This document shows, one piece after another, positions 1,317 to 64,000 of a DNA stretch of 64,000 nucleotides. The first letter of the stretch is position 1; every line of letters starts with the position of its first letter. Source of the DNA: an uncultured Christensenella sp. (lineage in GTDB: Bacteria; Bacillota; Clostridia; Christensenellales; UBA1242); assembly GCA_949296965.1 (NCBI GenBank), contig CASFQL010000010.1, positions 194,115 through 258,114 of the forward strand, in the 5' to 3' direction. The position numbers were made by a program, and so were the translations under genes. Below the pieces are notes generated by a model that was given only the letters and a program-made list of their open reading frames with translations, was not told where the DNA came from and searched no databases.

Positions 1317-1346
1317 ATGTGTGTAAAGTAAATTTGCTTTACATTG

Positions 1347-1442
1347 CGGGCTTTGTAGTGTGAAAATTTTAAAATAAAATTTTCACTGCGAAGTTTTATA
1401 AAAAACTTCGCACAAAAGTTTCACTTTTGATACAAAGCCCCG
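1347..1442 (+). repeat. Four-way-junction intergenic element, copy a (G+C-richer closing stem)
   Basis: Closing stem CGGGCTTTGTA / TACAAAGCCCCG encloses three hairpins: GTGAAAATTTT-aaaat-AAAATTTTCAC (1360-1386), GCGAAGTTTT-ataa-AAAACTTCGC (1388-1411) and CAAAAGT-ttc-ACTTTTG (1413-1429). Confidence 0.8.
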
Positions 1443-3151: not shown

Positions 3152-3245
3152 TTAAAATAGTTTTTTAAAATTTTTTTGAAAAGTTTACAAAAGAAATTTT
3201 TTTAAAAAAATTCAAAATATATATTTTTTATAAAGGAGTAAGAAA

Positions 3246-3548
3246 ATGGCAGTTAGAATTAGACTTACAAGATTAGGAGATAAGAAAAGTCCTTTTTACA
3301 GGGTTGTTGTTGCTGATGCAAGAACAAGTAGAGATGGTAAAGTTATCGACAATTTAGGATACTTTAATCCTTTAACTGAAAAAGATAACTTGAAAATCGA
3401 CAAAGAAAAGACTTTAAATTGGTTAAAAAATGGTGCACAACCAACTGAAACCGCTAGAACTTTGCTCGTTCAGGCTGGTGTTGTAGAAAATCCTAAACCT
3501 TATGCTAGTAAGAAAATTGTTCCAAAGAAAAAAGACGCAAAGGCATAA
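3246..3548 (+). CDS. rpsP: 30S ribosomal protein S16
   Basis: [25 protein letters not shown]-terminus; RBS AAAGGAG. Confidence 0.97.
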
Positions 3549-3573
3549 TCCTAGTATAAGAGGAGATTTTTAG

Positions 3574-3801
3574 ATGGAAGAATTACTTAAATTCATTTTA
3601 GATAATCTTGTTGATGATAAATCTTCAATTTCAATAGAGAAAAGAGAAGATGACAAAAGCGTTGTTTTTGAAGTTAGTGTTAGTGAACAAGATAAGGGTA
3701 AGGTTATTGGTAAAAACGGTAAAGTTGCTCAGGCAATAAGAACTGTTCTACATTCTGCATCTTATAAAGATGACAAAAAATATATTTTAAAGATAAAATA
3801 A
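3574..3801 (+). CDS. KH-domain RNA-binding protein (YlqC family)
   Basis: KGKVIGKNGKVAQAIRTV GxxG KH motif. Position between rpsP and rimM. Confidence 0.9.
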   Translation: MEELLKFILDNLVDDKSSISIEKREDDKSVVFEVSVSEQDKGKVIGKNGKVAQAIRTVLHSASYKDDKKYILKIK

Positions 3802-3805
3802 AGTT

Positions 3806-4294
3806 ATGATAGATGTTGCAAAGGTATTAAAACCACAAGGACTTAAAGGAGAAATTAAAGTTCAATGCTTCACTTTTGATATGGATTTTTGGAAAAATTT
3901 GAGAGAGATTTATATTGATAATGTTTTGTATGAGATTGAAAATGTTAGATTCTATAAATCTTTTGGTTACATTAAACTAACCCAAATAAATTCACAAGAA
4001 GAAGCCCAAGCATTACGAAATAAATTGTTACGAGTTAAAAAAGAAGATTTAAAACTTAAAAAAGATGAATTCCTCATATCTGACCTTGTGAGTTGTCAAG
4101 TTTTTGATGAAAAAGGAAATTTTGTCGGTAGTATAGAAAGCGTTGAAAAATATGGCTCTGCTGATATTATTAATATTTTACTTGGTGGGGCTAGAAACAG
4201 TTTTCCTTTTATTCAAGGACTATTTATTGAAACTGATTTTATTAATAAGAAGATTATTGTTAATAGGGAAAAACTAGATGAGGTATTGGTATGA
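3806..4294 (+). CDS. rimM: 16S rRNA processing protein RimM
   Basis: VAKVLKPQGLKGEIKV N-terminus. Synteny with trmD, with a 4-nt ATGA-type overlap. Confidence 0.9.
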   Translation: MIDVAKVLKPQGLKGEIKVQCFTFDMDFWKNLREIYIDNVLYEIENVRFYKSFGYIKLTQINSQEEAQALRNKLLRVKKEDLKLKKDEFLISDLVSCQVFDEKGNFVGSIESVEKYGSADIINILLGGARNSFPFIQGLFIETDFINKKIIVNREKLDEVLV

Positions 4295-5006: not shown

Positions 5007-5105
5007 ACGAACTTTGTGCTGTAAAAATTTTATTAAAAATTTTTACAATTAGATTTTGCTTTGCAAAATCTAATGCAAAAGTGAAACTTTTGGCACAAAG
5101 TTCGT
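5007..5105 (+). repeat. Four-way-junction intergenic element, copy b
   Basis: 13-bp closing stem ACGAACTTTGTGC / GCACAAAGTTCGT encloses TGTAAAAATTTT-att-AAAAATTTTTACA, ATTAGATTTTGC..GCAAAATCTAAT and CAAAAGT-gaa-ACTTTTG. Confidence 0.85.
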
Positions 5106-9627: not shown

Positions 9628-9723
9628 TTTTAAAATTCTATTTTTTACTATTTAGGTAAATGTTTTTTACTATTTTGAAATATAAATTTATTAGTAATTT
9701 TTGGTATATATTTAGTTTTTAGG

Positions 9724-9810
9724 GAACTTTGTGCTGTAAAAATTTAAAAAATTTTTACTATGAAATTTTAAAAAATTTCATTCAAAAGTAGAACTTTTGG
9801 CACAAAGTTC
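9724..9810 (+). repeat. Four-way-junction intergenic element, copy c
   Basis: Closing stem GAACTTTGTGC / GCACAAAGTTC encloses GTAAAAATTT-aaa-AAATTTTTAC, ATGAAATTT..AAATTTCAT and CAAAAGT-aga-ACTTTTG. GTTTT follows. Confidence 0.85.
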
Positions 9811-10000
9811 GTTTTATTATAAGTAGACAAAATATATAAATGAGTTTAGCAACAAATTAAATATATTTTTCATTAATTGAACAATTTTTAATTACAAATC
9901 AAAATAAATGTATCAATATATCTTTTAAAGCAAAAAAATAATTGTCGAACAATGTTATTTTGTTATATAATGACTTTTGAATAAAATAAAGGGGAGTGTG

Positions 10001-27728: not shown

Positions 27729-27863
27729 ATAAATATTTTTATTAAAAGTTTTTAATATTTTTATTAGATTTTCATATTATATTAGTGATTAATAATTTTA
27801 ACCTATTTAAAAAAAATTAAAAAAATGATAAAATAAGTTAGTTGGTAAGCAATTAATCTATGC

Positions 27864-27950
27864 GGGGCTGTGAGTGGCGGGCTTTAAGCCCGCAAAACAC
27901 GAAAGTTTCGTGTTTTCAAATTTGATTTTATCAAATTTTCTCACAGCCCC
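27864..27950. repeat. Four-way-junction intergenic element, copy d (divergent, G+C-rich)
   Basis: Closing stem GGGGCTGTGAG / CTCACAGCCCC encloses GCGGGCTT-taa..GCCCGC, AAAACACGAAA-gtt-TCGTGTTTT and AAATTTGAT-ttt-ATCAAATTT. Confidence 0.75.
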
Positions 27951-28010
27951 AAACTATACTAGTATAAGTTTGGGTAAAAAGAAATAATTTAATAAATATT
28001 TAATTTTTCA

Positions 28011-30642: not shown

Positions 30643-30650
30643 ACTTTAAA

Positions 30651-30684
30651 GGTAACAATGCTTTTAGTGTTGTTATCTTTTTTT
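30651..30684 (+). terminator. Intrinsic terminator after efp
   Basis: GGTAACAA (30651-30658) pairs with TTGTTATC (30670-30677), including one G.U that is valid only on the + strand. T7 follows. Confidence 0.7.
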
Positions 30685-30818
30685 AAGTTAATTATGATAT
30701 TTTTATAAGTTAATTATGATATTTTTATAAGTTAATTATGATATTTTTATAAGTTAATTGAGATATTTTTATAAGGTTATTAAAAGATTTTTCTATAAGT
30801 TAATTGAAAGATTTTTAC
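30685..30818 (+). repeat. Tandem array of 22-bp direct repeats (about 6 units)
   Basis: AAGTTAATTATGATATTTTTAT occurs at 30685, 30707 and 30729. Variants are AAGTTAATTGAGATATTTTTAT (30751), AAGGTTATTAAAAGATTTTTCTAT (30773) and AAGTTAATTGAAAGATTTTTAC (30797). Units abut with no spacers. Confidence 0.9.
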
Positions 30819-30858: not shown

Positions 30859-30956
30859 GGGAACTATGTGCAAAAGTTAAACTTTTGCACGAAATTTTAA
30901 AAGTTTTTAAAATTTCGTTGTAAAATTTTTTTAAAAATTTTACTCACATAGTTCCC
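30859..30956 (-). repeat. Four-way-junction intergenic element, copy e (inverted hairpin order)
   Basis: Closing stem GGGAACTATGTG / CACATAGTTCCC encloses CAAAAGT-taa-ACTTTTG, ACGAAATTTTAAA-agtt-TTTAAAATTTCGT and GTAAAATTTT..AAAATTTTAC. A T-run follows on the minus strand. Confidence 0.85.
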
Positions 30957-31080
30957 GTATCTTATATAGTTTTTGTCAATATTATATATCTTATTTTTTT
31001 ATAGTTTGTAATAAAAAGTTGTTTAAATGATAAAAATTAAAAATATTAAATCTAGTAATAACTATAACTAATTTTATAAG

Positions 31081-31575
31081 AAGTTAAGGTAAAAGAGAAA
31101 ATTTATTTTCAATTTTACTTAACGACGACGAATCAAAATTATGTGACAAAAATGCTAATTTTTGAATTTAAAATTTAACTTAGTTAAATTCTAATAGTTG
31201 TTATTTTATTTTACAAAAATACAACAGCACATAATTTATATTATAGGAAGTTAAGGTAAAAGAGAAAATTTATTTTCATTTTTACTTAACGACGACAAAT
31301 CAAAATTATGTATCAAAATGCTAATTTTTGAATTTAAAATTTAACTTAGTTAAATTCTAATAGTTGTTATTTTATTTTACAAAAAATACAACAACACATA
31401 ATTTATATTATAGGAAGTTAAGGTAAAAGAGAAAATTTATTTTCAATTTTACTTAACGACGACAAATCAAAATTATGTGACAAAAATGCTAATTTTTGAA
31501 TTTAAAATTTAACTTGCTTAAATTTTAAAGGTTGTGATTTTATAAAAAATCACAACAACACATAATTTATATTAA
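31081..31575. repeat. Three head-to-tail copies of a 167-nt composite structured element
   Basis: AAGTTAAGG recurs at 31081, 31248 and 31415, giving a 167-nt period. Each unit has a long hairpin, then linker GACGAC(G/A)AAT, then closing stem AAATTATGTG / CACATAATTT around three hairpins. Confidence 0.9.
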
Positions 31576-31760
31576 TAAGTTTTTATTAGAAAAAATAAAG
31601 TAATAAGAAAAAGATGTTGCAAAAAAGTAATAATTATTATTAACACAAACTGTGAGTATAAGGTTATAAATAAATTATTTTTTAAAATATATATTTTTTG
31701 CAATATATTTACAAAAAATGAGCTATGCAAAACATATTTTCAATAAATCTAAAAACAAAA

Positions 31761-31797
31761 AATAGCAATACTTTTGTAGTATTGTTATTTTTTTTGT
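31761..31797 (+). terminator. Orphan + strand intrinsic terminator with no upstream annotated gene
   Basis: 12-bp stem AATAGCAATACT (31761-31772) / AGTATTGTTATT (31778-31789), with one G.U that is valid only on the + strand. T8-9 follows. Confidence 0.65.
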
Positions 31798-45277: not shown

Positions 45278-45400
45278 ATTAAAAATTTTTAATTATTTTA
45301 ATTAGGTTTATTTAACACTTTATGTATTTAGAATTTTAATTATATTTGAATTTATATTTATATTTATATTTACAATTTTTATATTCTAGGAAGTTAAGGT

Positions 45401-45560
45401 AAAAAGGAAAATTTATTTTTATTTTTACTTAACGACGACAAATTCAAATTTTGTGCCAAAAATGTTAATTTTTGAATTAAAATTTAACCTAGTTAAATTT
45501 TAATAGTTGTTATTTTGTTTTTACAAAATTACAACAGCACATAATTTATATTTATGTAAT
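45401..45560. repeat. Solo copy of the 167-nt composite structured element
   Basis: Sequence AAGTTAAGGTAAAAAGGAAAATTTATTTTTATTTTTACTTAACGACGACAAAT...GCACATAATTTATA is colinear with the units at 31081-31575. Confidence 0.88.
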
Positions 45561-45624
45561 TATAGTTTTATTTTAAATATATATGAATTTTTATATGAAA
45601 TTATATGTAAAAAAAATTATATAT

Positions 45625-45718
45625 GGAACTATGTGCTGTGAAAATTAGAAAATTTTCACTGTGAAATTTTAAAGTTCTAAAATTTCACGCAAAAGTGAAA
45701 CTTTTGGCACATAGTTCC
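45625..45718 (+). repeat. Four-way-junction intergenic element, copy f
   Basis: Closing stem GGAACTATGTGC / GCACATAGTTCC encloses GTGAAAATT-agaa-AATTTTCAC, GTGAAATTTTA-aagttc-TAAAATTTCAC and CAAAAGT-gaa-ACTTTTG. T6 follows. Confidence 0.85.
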
Positions 45719-46018
45719 TTTTTTACATAACTAATTTTAGTAGTAATATAAATTTTTCATTTAATAGGTCATAAAAGTAAAAATCATCTAAAAATATAAT
45801 TTTTGTTAAAAAATAAATATTTTACAAATTTTGAATAATATTTGAAAAAATTGTAAAAAAAAATAGACAAATGTATTTTTATATGATATTATCTTGCTAT
45901 TAAAAAGTTATACAAAAATATTAAAAAGAATAAATAATGTTCAATATTCATTCAAAATTAATATTTTAAACAATTTTTTTAATAACAAATTTTTATAATA
46001 AAAGGAAGTTTTAAATTT

Positions 46019-46741
46019 ATGATTAAATATAATGATGTAATTTTCTATTCAAAAGAGCATAATATTTTGCTTGCAAGTAAAGTAAAAGAAATTCTTTCTA
46101 AAAAAGAAAGAGGTGTTAATAATATTGATGACATTGATGATATTTTTATAAATGGAAAATTATCTTTTAAATATTTAATCTTAGATTTTAGTAAATCATC
46201 ACTTGATGAAAGATCAATAACAATTTTACAAAAGATGCTTAAAGGCAACTTAATACAAGAAATTGTAATTATAACTAACAATAATCTTTTTAAAATTCCT
46301 GAATTTATATATGTTAATTTAGATGAGGATTTTACATATAATTTTAGTAGGACTTTTGATAAAATAATCGAAAGGGAAATTAATACAATTAATGAAGTGG
46401 CTGGCATATGGAGAAAAATTATTAGTCAACAACTTTGCGATTGGGGATTTTCTTCAAATACAATGGGATACCTTGAAATTATTGATAGTATTATATATTA
46501 TGCAGAACGAAAAGGTGTAATAAAAAATTTTAATAAGGAAGTTTATATCTACTTGTCAAATAAGTATAGAGCCACTACAACATGTGTAGAATTAAGTATA
46601 AGAAAAGCAATTAAAAAGGCTTCTTTAAAGAAAGATAAATTCCCAAGAATTGAGAAATTAACTAACAAAGGTTTTATAACTTACGCTATTTCACAATTAT
46701 ATGATAATTTAATTGAAAATAGAGTTATAAAAACGGCTTAG
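46019..46741 (+). CDS. spo0A: Spo0A-like sporulation regulator with atypical receiver domain
   Basis: The C-terminal half aligns by eye to Spo0A_C: GFSSNTMGYLEIIDSI.., FNKEVYIYLSNKYRATTTCVELSIRKAIKKAS, KLTNKGFITYAISQL. It lies downstream of spoIVB. The N-terminal REC-like half lacks the acidic pair and conserved Lys. Confidence 0.8.
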   Translation: MIKYNDVIFYSKEHNILLASKVKEILSKKERGVNNIDDIDDIFINGKLSFKYLILDFSKSSLDERSITILQKMLKGNLIQEIVIITNNNLFKIPEFIYVNLDEDFTYNFSRTFDKIIEREINTINEVAGIWRKIISQQLCDWGFSSNTMGYLEIIDSIIYYAERKGVIKNFNKEVYIYLSNKYRATTTCVELSIRKAIKKASLKKDKFPRIEKLTNKGFITYAISQLYDNLIENRVIKTA

Positions 46742-62985: not shown

Positions 62986-63072
62986 ATTTTGTTTTTAAAA
63001 AAAATATTAAAATCTTATTATAAAAATATAAATAAAACAATCTAACTTGATTCTGAAAGGTTAGAAAAAAGG

Positions 63073-63161
63073 GGAACTCTGTGTCAAAAGTTTCACTTTT
63101 GGGTGAAGTTTGAAAAACTTCACTGTAAAAATTTTGTAAAAATTTTTACGCACAGAGTTCC
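63073..63161 (-). repeat. Four-way-junction intergenic element, copy g (inverted hairpin order)
   Basis: Closing stem GGAACTCTGTG / CACAGAGTTCC encloses CAAAAGT-ttc-ACTTTTG, GTGAAGTTT-gaaa-AACTTCAC and GTAAAAATTTT-gta-AAAATTTTTAC. T6 follows on the minus strand. Confidence 0.85.
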
Positions 63162-63213
63162 ATTTTAAATTAAATATAGTTTTAGGAAAATATTATAATA
63201 AAAACATAAACAT

Positions 63214-63275
63214 AAGTTAAAATCAATAAGTTAAAATAATAAGTTAAAATCAATAAATTAAATAAGTTGATTTTA
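63214..63275 (+). repeat. Short tandem AAGTTAAAAT(C/A)AAT repeats
   Basis: AAGTTAAAATCAAT (63214), AAGTTAAAATAAT (63228) and AAGTTAAAATCAAT (63241), then degenerate AAATTAAAT and AAGTTGATTTT. Confidence 0.75.
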
Positions 63276-63342: not shown

Positions 63343-64000
63343 TTATAAATTTGGGGTTTGTTCATCAGGGTGTTCAATTGACGGTTTATCAGTGCTTGAA
63401 GTATTAGGGTCTTGTGTATTTCCACCAGAACTTCCACCAGATGAATGACCACCACTCCTATCTATTGTATAAGTTGTAGGCTTAAACAATTCATGTTGCC
63501 TTATTGATTTTTCAACTTGTGGGTTTTTACTATCAAAAGAATAAACTCCACCAATTCCAGCAGAGAAATTTGTATCAAATAAATTATTTATGGAAGATCC
63601 AACTTTTGCATACAATGTAAGAGTATCTTTATCATTATTTACAGGTATATTGACTCCACCAAATGCAGACAATTCTGTTGTTGGGTTAGTAGGAACACCA
63701 GAAACTCCTGCTTCTCCACCAACAAAGCCAGAAACTTTTCTTTTATCTCCATTATTATCTTGGCTATTGATTTCAATATAATTATTTCTTTTATCTTCAC
63801 TATTTAATTGACTTAAATTTGATAGATTAATATTTGGGTCATTTTTCATTGTTTCAATAATCTTTTTATATTCATCAATTGTTGGATTTTCAAGATCTAA
63901 TTGACTTAAATTTGATAGATTAATATTTGGGTCATTTTTCATTGTTTCAATAATCTTTTTATATTCATCAATTGTTGGATTTTCAAGTTGTTCAACTTTT
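63343..64000 (-). CDS. Hypothetical tandem-repeat protein, partial (frame stays open past the right window edge)
   Basis: The 93-nt / 31-aa unit MKNDPNINLSNLSQL(D/N)(L/S)ENPTIDEYKKIIET is repeated, with DNA repeat starts at 63808 and 63901. The same frame continues as ...VEQLENPTIDEYKKIIET to position 64000. The C-terminal part is Gly/Ser-rich with no family I recognise. Confidence 0.65.
   Translation of the reverse strand, partial: KVEQLENPTIDEYKKIIETMKNDPNINLSNLSQLDLENPTIDEYKKIIETMKNDPNINLSNLSQLNSEDKRNNYIEINSQDNNGDKRKVSGFVGGEAGVSGVPTNPTTELSAFGGVNIPVNNDKDTLTLYAKVGSSINNLFDTNFSAGIGGVYSFDSKNPQVEKSIRQHELFKPTTYTIDRSGGHSSGGSSGGNTQDPNTSSTDKPSIEHPDEQTPNL

Follow-up and report, generated by a model that had tools for sequence, protein, structure and literature searches.

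The dif site consists of two 11-bp arms arranged around a 6-bp central region (PMC4246890; PMC3025954), and Xer strand exchange occurs at the borders of that central region (PMC4246890). IMEXs (integrative mobile elements that exploit Xer) make use of such sites while encoding no recombinase; among them, TLCphi carries a good XerC arm and central region together with a degenerate XerD arm, and CTXphi integrates in tandem (PMC4246890). For the Firmicutes, the reference sites are the experimentally confirmed dif of Bacillus subtilis, ACTTCCTAGAA TATATA TTATGTAAACT, and the predicted dif of Staphylococcus aureus, ACTTCCTATAA TATATA TTATGTAAACT, the table that lists them holding no further Clostridia for comparison (PMC3025954). 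How small can an element be and still use such a site? This article concerns a 64,000-nt stretch of DNA (contig CASFQL010000010.1, positions 194,115 to 258,114; hereafter the window) from an uncultured Christensenella sp., a spore-forming Firmicute known only from metagenome-assembled genomes (MAGs), and in particular a repeat unit of 166-167 nt, the long element, which forms a tandem array there and recurs as a solo copy. As a general claim, we are confident that this is mobile non-coding DNA. The manner of its movement is a narrower matter: we favour, at about even confidence, a gene-less integrative mini-element that would move by Xer-type (tyrosine-recombinase) site-specific recombination. 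The first-pass annotation of this DNA, which had described the array and its fold, missed the lineage-specific insertion, the movement between chromosome and phage and the dif-like joint, all of which were found by follow-up comparisons.

The array extends from 31074 to 31574, with a period of 167, 3.0 copies and 92% matches (Tandem Repeats Finder), and AAGTTAAGG starts at 31081, 31248 and 31415, giving an exact 167-nt spacing of unit starts; the three head-to-tail units proposed earlier are thus well founded. As delimited by Tandem Repeats Finder, alignment and folds, unit 1 (31074-31240, plus strand) is made of a 5' hairpin (31083-31123), the linker GACGACGAATCA (31124-31135) and a closed three-hairpin junction (31136-31237). 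In unit 2 (31241-31407, plus strand), which shares 95% identity with unit 1, the deletion of 1 nt weakens the closing stem and the first inner hairpin; in unit 3 (31408-31574, plus strand), ~91% identical to units 1 and 2, the last hairpin is better paired than in the others. Pairwise differences among the three amount to 5-9% and affect many positions. The solo copy lies between spoIVB and spo0A; its existence had been recognized, but it had been placed at 45401-45560, when it actually spans 45384-45552 (plus strand), with AAGTTAAGG at 45391, the 5' hairpin at 45393-45433 and the junction domain at 45446-45547. Because the array contains no open reading frame (ORF) of at least 50 aa on either strand, and because 167 is no multiple of 3, the element is taken to be non-coding. 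Its body is composite, a 5' module (hairpin and GACGAC linker) being followed by the closed three-hairpin junction. Between species, neither the stem of hairpin 1 nor the GACGAC linker varies, against a divergence of 11-16% over the remainder of the unit.

The joint between two units resembles dif beyond chance. Read on the minus strand, it is ACTTCCTATAA TATAAA TTATGTGCTGT where unit 1 meets unit 2 (31224-31251) and ACTTCCTATAA TATAAA TTATGTGTTGT where unit 2 meets unit 3 (31391-31418). Each joint agrees with the Firmicute dif at 23 of 28 positions, and the match is uneven: the XerC arm agrees at 11/11 positions, the central region at 5/6 and the XerD arm at 7/11, with the B. subtilis and S. 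aureus sequences as the reference. When the 23-nt core of the Firmicute dif was searched for with up to 3 mismatches, the two inter-unit joints were the sole matches in the window, with 1 mismatch each, and none of 100 shuffles gave a match. Scored as a 28-mer, the joints reach 23, against a maximum of 19-21 across 30 shuffles, and the top three of the 128,000 window positions are the two joints followed by the left boundary of the solo copy (21/28). Within 220 kb of related DNA, sites of at least 20/28 are confined to the left boundaries of the copies found in a related species, BRZ_E_bin128 (BRZ).

The outer limits of the copies are built from the same parts. Left boundaries consist of the XerC-type arm of the element, the central region and an arm from the flank, and right boundaries of a flank arm, the central region and the XerD-type arm of the element. 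This hybrid, attL/attR-type arrangement is seen at 12 of 12 boundaries, the central region deviating (AATTAG) at the left boundary of the array. There (31057-31084, minus strand), the sequence is ACTTCTTATAA AATTAG TTATAGTTATT, in which the element's XerC-type arm (10/11) is joined to the flank through an atypical central region; on the right (31555-31582, minus strand), AAACTTATTAA TATAAA TTATGTGTTGT joins a flank arm to the element's XerD-type arm. The left boundary of the solo copy (45367-45394, minus strand), ACTTCCTAGAA TATAAA AATTGTAAATA, has an XerC-type arm identical to that of B. subtilis dif, and the right one (45534-45561, minus strand), AATTACATAAA TATAAA TTATGTGCTGT, scores 18/28. 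Every long copy is also preceded by at least 8-13 nt that repeat its own 3' end, and the core AATTTATA flanks all four insertions.

Two of these insertions lie outside the window. Genome, metagenome and viral-contig collections were scanned with an invariant 17-mer, and 2 of the 79 matching loci proved real, both from the MAG BRZ_E_bin128. The first, on contig L027, occupies a chromosomal spacer upstream of a spoVT-like gene, and the second lies on contig L033, where a virion structural protein and the major head protein of a phage (E 2e-52) are encoded. Over exactly 174 nt, from AATTTATATTATAGG to CACATAATTTATA, these copies agree at every position (100% identity), and the sequences on either side are unrelated; phages related to L033 through the head protein (46-56% identity) contain neither the long element nor its 95-nt relative described below. 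Together, these observations point to recent movement of a discrete unit between chromosome and phage. Once the 8-nt repeat is subtracted, the 174 nt become 166, which is equated with the period of the array. The breakpoints of the identical block, which were set before the resemblance to dif was noticed, fall on the edges of the 6-bp central region. The direct repeats at L027 and L033 share the core AATTTATA and extend from it in opposite directions, which fits recombination at a short homologous core, not a staggered-cut target duplication. A comparison with an empty site at L027 failed, as homologues of the gene upstream of the element there do not exceed 67% identity. A blastn search of plasmid and phage collections with the long unit and one 95-nt copy returned short chance matches only.

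Some particulars of these contigs deserve mention. On L027, a family-2 glycosyltransferase ORF (3205-3999, C-terminal part) runs into the element, from which its last codons and stop (within GGAAGTTAAGG) are derived. On L033, a 125-aa ORF lies downstream of the head gene, and the element is inserted in the AT-rich spacer of 800 nt that separates this ORF from the next structural genes; in this region (2410-2830), a direct repeat of ~120 nt adjoins the inserted element. L033 and its related contigs, only 10-13 kb long, may be small complete phage genomes.

The long element is a lineage-specific insertion and no conserved part of the spoIIIA or spo0A loci. The efp-spoIIIAA spacer, which houses the array, is 1215 nt long in the window, and measures 360 nt in BRZ (L090; SpoIIIAA 79% identical to that of the window), 214 nt in L089 (81%) and 125 nt in L093 (73%). 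Neither the long nor the 95-nt element is present in the spacers of L090, L089 and L093, which do not align with that of the window apart from one terminator-like hairpin. In strain L003, which belongs to the species of the window, a single unit occupies the efp site, and unit 3 is the array unit most similar to it.

On the reading that we favour, the element is non-autonomous and belongs to a small group of uncultured, low-GC, spore-forming Clostridia. Its joined ends, between neighbours in the array and as they would in a circle, form one complete 28-bp dif-like site with a perfect Firmicute XerC-type arm, a TATAAA central region and a partly degenerate XerD-type arm. A tyrosine recombinase acting in trans, most likely the host XerC/XerD, would recombine this site with AT-rich secondary sites sharing the central region, and integration would leave the element between two hybrid sites. 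A second integration into a hybrid site, or unequal exchange between hybrid sites, would then produce a spacer-less head-to-tail array with a period of one element. The action of Xer or another tyrosine recombinase on the site, the circular intermediate, the route of array growth and the purpose of the hairpins are all parts of this scheme that we infer; the hairpins may have been inherited from a 95-nt parent or be needed in a single-stranded intermediate.

Several observations weigh against this scheme. None of the four insertion sites is the chromosomal dif, and one of them is in a phage; the window shows no GC-skew or gene-strand switch, and its two loci are 14 kb apart. The reconstructed targets score ~15-17/28, a level reached by more than 100 sites in the window. 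TATAAA is replaced by AATTAG in the left boundary of the array, and the outer half of the XerD-type arm is poor (GCTGT vs AAACT). No Xer or integrase gene was found among the ~40 window ORFs tested. A double-stranded circle of 166 bp is small for tyrosine-recombinase synapsis. The hairpin-rich fold, the invariant hairpin-1 stem and the GACGAC linker are left unexplained by an Xer model. The single unit of L003 is a chimera of units 1 and 3, for which homologous unequal exchange or a collapse in assembly is a better explanation than recombination at the joints, and for this reason copy-number polymorphism at the efp site is not established. The evidence comes from four insertion loci in two species, and the resemblance to dif was first spotted by eye, which brings in some look-elsewhere effect.

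How, then, does the element compare with known users of Xer sites? Like IMEXs, it has no recombinase of its own, its array being without any ORF of at least 50 aa and its unit measuring only 166-167 nt; as in TLCphi in particular, its 28-bp dif mimic is near-perfect in the XerC arm and the central region but degenerate in the XerD arm. Its integrated copies are bounded by hybrid sites sharing the central region, the left boundary of the array excepted, and it forms tandem arrays, as CTXphi does when integrating in tandem. Known IMEXs, however, are phages, satellites or islands of several kb that carry genes and sit at the chromosomal dif (PMC4246890), whereas the element described here has 166 nt, no gene and four non-dif sites with weak arms, one of them in a tailed-phage-like contig, and its host belongs to the Clostridia, not to Vibrio, Neisseria or Xanthomonas. 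With insertion sites differing from the chromosomal dif, it is not a canonical IMEX. The dif modules of Acinetobacter offer a second parallel: these are discrete DNA modules delimited by XerC/XerD-type sites and thought to be moved by Xer, and dif-like sites away from the main dif are also reported (PMC12907356, PMC6449649, PMC13141974). Those modules carry genes and are found mainly in plasmids, unlike the gene-less chromosomal or phage copies seen here. Their flanking sites moreover alternate in orientation, whereas the element here has direct repeats. A bolder version of the favoured reading can be offered only tentatively: the element would be the first miniature IMEX, 166 nt long, gene-less and circle-forming, hijacking host XerC/XerD; it would be the first in the Clostridia and the first to spread to non-dif secondary sites, including a phage; its fold into a four-way junction would be of use in a single-stranded intermediate, like the folded attachment site of CTXphi, and the 95-nt family would be a structurally selected parent repeat with a separate mobilization route.

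The modular architecture of the long unit can be read from its predicted folds. Unconstrained minimum free energy (MFE) folds reproduce the plan proposed by the first-pass annotation, in which a 5' hairpin is followed by the GACGACNAAT linker, left unpaired, and by three hairpins within a closing stem. The MFE z-scores lie between -4.5 and -6.0 with RNA parameters and at -8.1 with DNA parameters, and 0 of 200 shuffles were as stable. The minus strand folds as well as the plus strand, and with DNA parameters the folds of both strands are just as good. Two details of the earlier description hold in part: in the linker, given as GACGAC(G/A)AAT, GACGAC is conserved, but the base 3' of it can be G, A or C; and the last hairpin of unit 3 does carry a change that preserves pairing, though no compensatory swap is involved: a G-C pair (T to G, C added) takes the place of a bulged T. 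In the seven long copies, 96.9% of the helix cells are paired, vs 44-53% when the partners are slid, and double changes keeping pairing occur at 5 of 55 pairs (10 cells). Helices are thus preserved rather than broken in the copies elsewhere, including those of another species, as the earlier description required; these seven copies represent only ~3 independent lineages, so covariation in the long form is thin. G-U pairs number 0-2 among 37-58 pairs on either strand, which makes the helices nearly pure Watson-Crick, and this near-absence is more in line with nested DNA palindromes or with young copies than with an old RNA. Rfam 15, run over the whole window, gave 0 matches at the gathering threshold and, at E up to 10, only sub-threshold chance matches (eukaryotic miRNA models and one CRISPR repeat model), in keeping with the earlier statement that the long element matches no known non-coding RNA.

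The shorter relative of the element is a 95-nt family, of which ~74 kb of this genome yielded 8 copies, all of them intergenic, between housekeeping genes and in both orientations. Each copy has exactly four helices, with z-scores from -7.7 to -11.1; when five copies were aligned, 11 of 41 pairs retained pairing through changes on both sides. The closing stem, of 10-13 bp, forms a terminal inverted repeat, flanking repeats are not beyond chance and the ends of the copies carry no dif-like sites. Copy F (1346-1442, minus strand) lies between ftsY and ylxM and is closed by GGGGCTTTGTA/TACAAAGCCCC; copy A (5007-5105, minus) is downstream of trmD, and copy B (9722-9812, minus) is between rplS and a Mg-chelatase-like gene. 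Copy G (27863-27951, plus), between thrS and infC, follows the same four-helix plan although every helix is different and GC-rich. The closed four-way junction of copy C (30859-30956, plus) is 117 nt upstream of the array, copy D (45624-45719, minus) is 72 nt downstream of the solo copy and in the opposite orientation, and copy E occupies 63072-63162 (plus). A covariance model built from the 95-nt copies only was searched against the long units, and it matches their 3' domain full-length on the plus strand with 19-42 bits (solo copy 37, unit 3 34, unit 1 19, BRZ 42 and L003 35), the minus strand scoring 14-17. The long and short forms therefore make up one superfamily, as the first-pass annotation had supposed, and on the favoured reading the closed three-hairpin junction of the long unit would derive from the 95-nt family. 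A free-standing 5' module (hairpin 1 and linker) was sought with a covariance model in ~150 kb, and none was found.

Some of these short copies have notable surroundings. About 30 nt upstream of copy F, a perfect TTGACA-17-TATAAT consensus promoter is found at 1291-1319, and copy F is probably transcribed within a predicted ylxM-ffh leader. Directly upstream of copy C, a 22-nt minisatellite, TTTTTATAAGTTAATTATGATA, is present in 5.7 copies (30678-30805), and in 4.3 copies in strain L003. Directly downstream of copy E there is a 14-nt repeat, ATAAGTTAAAATCA, in 3.7 copies (63212-63262), and ATAAGTTAA is common to both repeats.

The GC content of the window as a whole is ~28%, and the plus strand carries nearly all of its genes. 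In the efp-spoIIIAA spacer, the order is as follows: the efp terminator (30648-30680, plus strand), upstream of all other parts of the expanded spacer, then the minisatellite, copy C, the array, a second terminator-like hairpin with a T-run (31764-31795, plus strand), read directly from the sequence, and spoIIIAA. This second hairpin is the sole part of the spacer conserved in the relative L089; the efp terminator resembles it, and a ~1.1-kb repeat block is thus flanked by two copies of one terminator that have diverged. The spacer contains promoter-like matches at the frequency expected by chance (17 observed, 13.2 ± 3.5 expected). At the other locus, the order is spoIVB, solo copy, copy D and spo0A. 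The protein in the spo0A position (240 aa, 46019-46741) has a single Pfam match, to the C-terminal domain of Spo0A (E 1e-9), and no receiver domain was detected in it at E up to 0.001; its N-terminal half may be highly divergent. Three of the four long-element loci are directly upstream of sporulation genes, namely spoIIIAA (window 31857), spo0A (window 46019) and spoVT (L027 4257). This proximity may reflect only long, insertion-tolerant spacers, the positions not being conserved between species, and a sporulation-specific role was rejected on that same ground. Near the end of the window, a 93-nt tandem duplication (2.0 copies, 100% identity, 63805-63987) lies mostly within a minus-strand ORF (63343-63942) that belongs to no Pfam family; it could be an in-frame repeat (93 = 31 codons) or an assembly artefact.

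Four other explanations have to be weighed against movement by Xer. The most serious, though we hold it to be rather improbable, is a transposase-driven miniature element, which in the broad sense counts as a MITE (miniature inverted-repeat transposable element): an 8-bp target duplication with a strong preference for AATTTATA-like targets would account for the flanks, the likeness to dif would combine AT-rich coincidence with a TATGTG closing stem inherited from the 95-nt family, and the array would have grown by slippage or by unequal crossing-over between flanking repeats. The element is small, AT-rich, intergenic, multi-copy and highly base-paired, as described MITEs are (PMC10969869; PMC3049150); an 8-nt direct repeat does flank it, the XerD-type half overlaps the closing stem, of which the 95-nt family has a similar version, the target sites mimic dif poorly, and the chimeric L003 unit suggests homologous exchange. 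Yet the composite, which begins TTATAGGAAG and ends CAGCACAT (...GCACAT), has no terminal inverted repeat, the same 8-mer is seen at four independent insertions with a repeat that extends differently in L027 and L033, the match of the XerC-type arm (11/11) and central region (5/6) is far beyond chance, and no transposase was found among the ~40 window ORFs tested. A classical MITE was rejected, as there are no terminal inverted repeats and the flanking core AATTTATA is identical at all four loci, which is not a locus-dependent duplication. The first-pass annotation had found no match to a MITE: it was right that this is not a classical one, but the element does resemble known classes of small mobile repeats.

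Could the selected entity be instead a structured RNA, either a small RNA or a cis-acting stabilizer, processing or insulating element transcribed from the spacer, the DNA copies and the array being duplications of its gene? The first-pass annotation had suggested looking for transcripts of the element, but an RNA role seems distinctly unlikely. It would be suggested by the very stable predicted folds (z-scores of -4.5 to -11 across both families), by the double changes that keep the helices in both forms, by copy G, whose architecture is retained with wholly different helices, by the orientation of all long copies, which is that of the flanking genes, and by the consensus promoter just upstream of copy F. 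But Rfam is silent, G-U pairs are nearly absent, both strands fold equally, with DNA parameters too, and some short copies run with transcription and others against it; the array comes after the efp terminator and before a second terminator-like hairpin, and promoter-like matches remain at chance. The element is also missing from the same loci in sister species and moves into a phage as a discrete DNA block, and compensatory hairpin changes are known in mobile DNA as well, in REPINs (PMC3116915). A DNA site serving the host, such as a cluster for recombinase or nucleoid-protein binding or a regulatory array for sporulation genes, is very unlikely: the nearness to spoIIIAA, spo0A and spoVT at 3/4 loci and the invariant hairpin-1 stem and linker speak for it, whereas no copy lies upstream of spoIIIAA in BRZ or other relatives, only two copies with the 17-mer are present in the entire BRZ assembly, the fourth locus belongs to a phage, the array is cut off from spoIIIAA by a terminator-like hairpin, and developmental genes would in any case have long, insertion-tolerant spacers. 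That the array is an artefact of metagenome assembly, one real unit having been triplicated, is harder still to believe. Other assemblies do break in or beside the element, and one (L003) has a single unit, but the many differences between units (5-9%) mean that three distinct sequences must exist, in L088, from an independent assembly, the 3' half of unit 3 and the right flank recur without any change, and the reality of the element itself is shown by the solo and BRZ copies. In the independent assembly ERZ17292904, contigs L002, L086 and L088 end or start in or beside elements, at about unit position 81, which indicates that these elements fragment short-read assemblies of this lineage.

Comparison with other families of repeats leads to a similar picture of partial likeness. 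Among pneumococcal repeats (BOX, RUP and SPRITE), BOX is a composite interspersed repeat of Firmicutes with a tandemly iterated module and a strain-variable length; it folds extensively, clusters with and inserts into other repeat families, and has no known mobilizing enzyme (PMC3049150). The iteration in BOX, though, is limited to the internal boxB, with boxA on one side and boxC on the other, and does not involve the whole unit as it does here; terminal inverted repeats are a feature of BOX, a dif-like site is not, and the two share no sequence similarity. REPINs and REPs with their RAYTs are likewise non-autonomous extragenic hairpin repeats with compensatory changes, tandem arrays and a proposed single-stranded DNA intermediate (PMC3116915), a likeness that is strongest for the 95-nt family, with its compensatory change, its lack of flanking duplications and its two orientations. 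REPs, however, are 20-40-nt GC-rich palindromes with a conserved GTAG or CGTC tag (PMC3733652). Membership in REP or REPIN was rejected, as the units here have 90-167 nt, four to five helices and no GTAG/CGTC tag; no RAYT-like gene was found among the ~40 window ORFs tested, ~74 kb of the genome having been examined. The intergenic mosaic elements of Neisseria are arrays of 50-150-bp non-coding RS units bounded by dRS3, which is also a phage integration site. They occur in different bacteria, their bounding repeat is not dif-like and they have no four-way-junction fold. Taken together, the element would seem to work most like an IMEX or an Acinetobacter dif module and, as a tandem composite repeat of a Firmicute, to look most like BOX, while it fails the defining features of each family compared.

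Further candidates were tried and rejected. The integron attC site would read RYYYAAC...GTTRRRY, whereas hairpin 1 reads GTTAAGG...CTTAAC, in reversed order, and no integrase was found among the ~40 window ORFs tested. An element derived from IS200/IS605 would have similar subterminal hairpins at its two ends, each with a guide tetranucleotide 5' of the foot that matches its cleavage site; this was dismissed because hairpin 1 (GTTAAGGTAAAA...) bears no relation to the last hairpin (GTTGTTATTTT...) and different bases precede the two feet on the 5' side (GGAA vs AATA or AAAG). For a type III toxin-antitoxin array, a ToxN-type toxin is lacking, the downstream gene being spoIIIAA (spo0A for the solo copy) and the only other nearby ORF being one of 52 aa on the minus strand. 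Known self-cleaving ribozymes were set aside, since the hairpin-ribozyme-like AGAGAAA and TATATTA are never opposed in a helix and the Rfam ribozyme models are silent. The spacing is wrong in an ArgR-box-like string of the middle hairpin, a loop resembling the CS-6 of single-strand origins is not kept in BRZ, and a sigma-K-type -10 match at the unit end, CATAATTTA, holds little information and has a terminator-like hairpin downstream.

Whatever the mechanism, two related repeat families are now defined that are absent from Rfam and from phage and plasmid collections and that break metagenome assemblies of this lineage, and the 95-nt family is a compact natural closed four-way junction maintained by compensatory change. 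The mimicry of an Xer site by the joint suggests a new, miniature way of exploiting the Xer machinery. If movement by Xer is indeed the explanation, the enzymes of dimer resolution can spread a DNA parasite that consists of little beyond an attachment site, and such spread reaches ordinary intergenic sites and phages. The size range of Xer-exploiting elements would then be widened by more than an order of magnitude and a new bacterial class added to their hosts, and bacterial spacer-less tandem arrays would have gained a simple mechanism.

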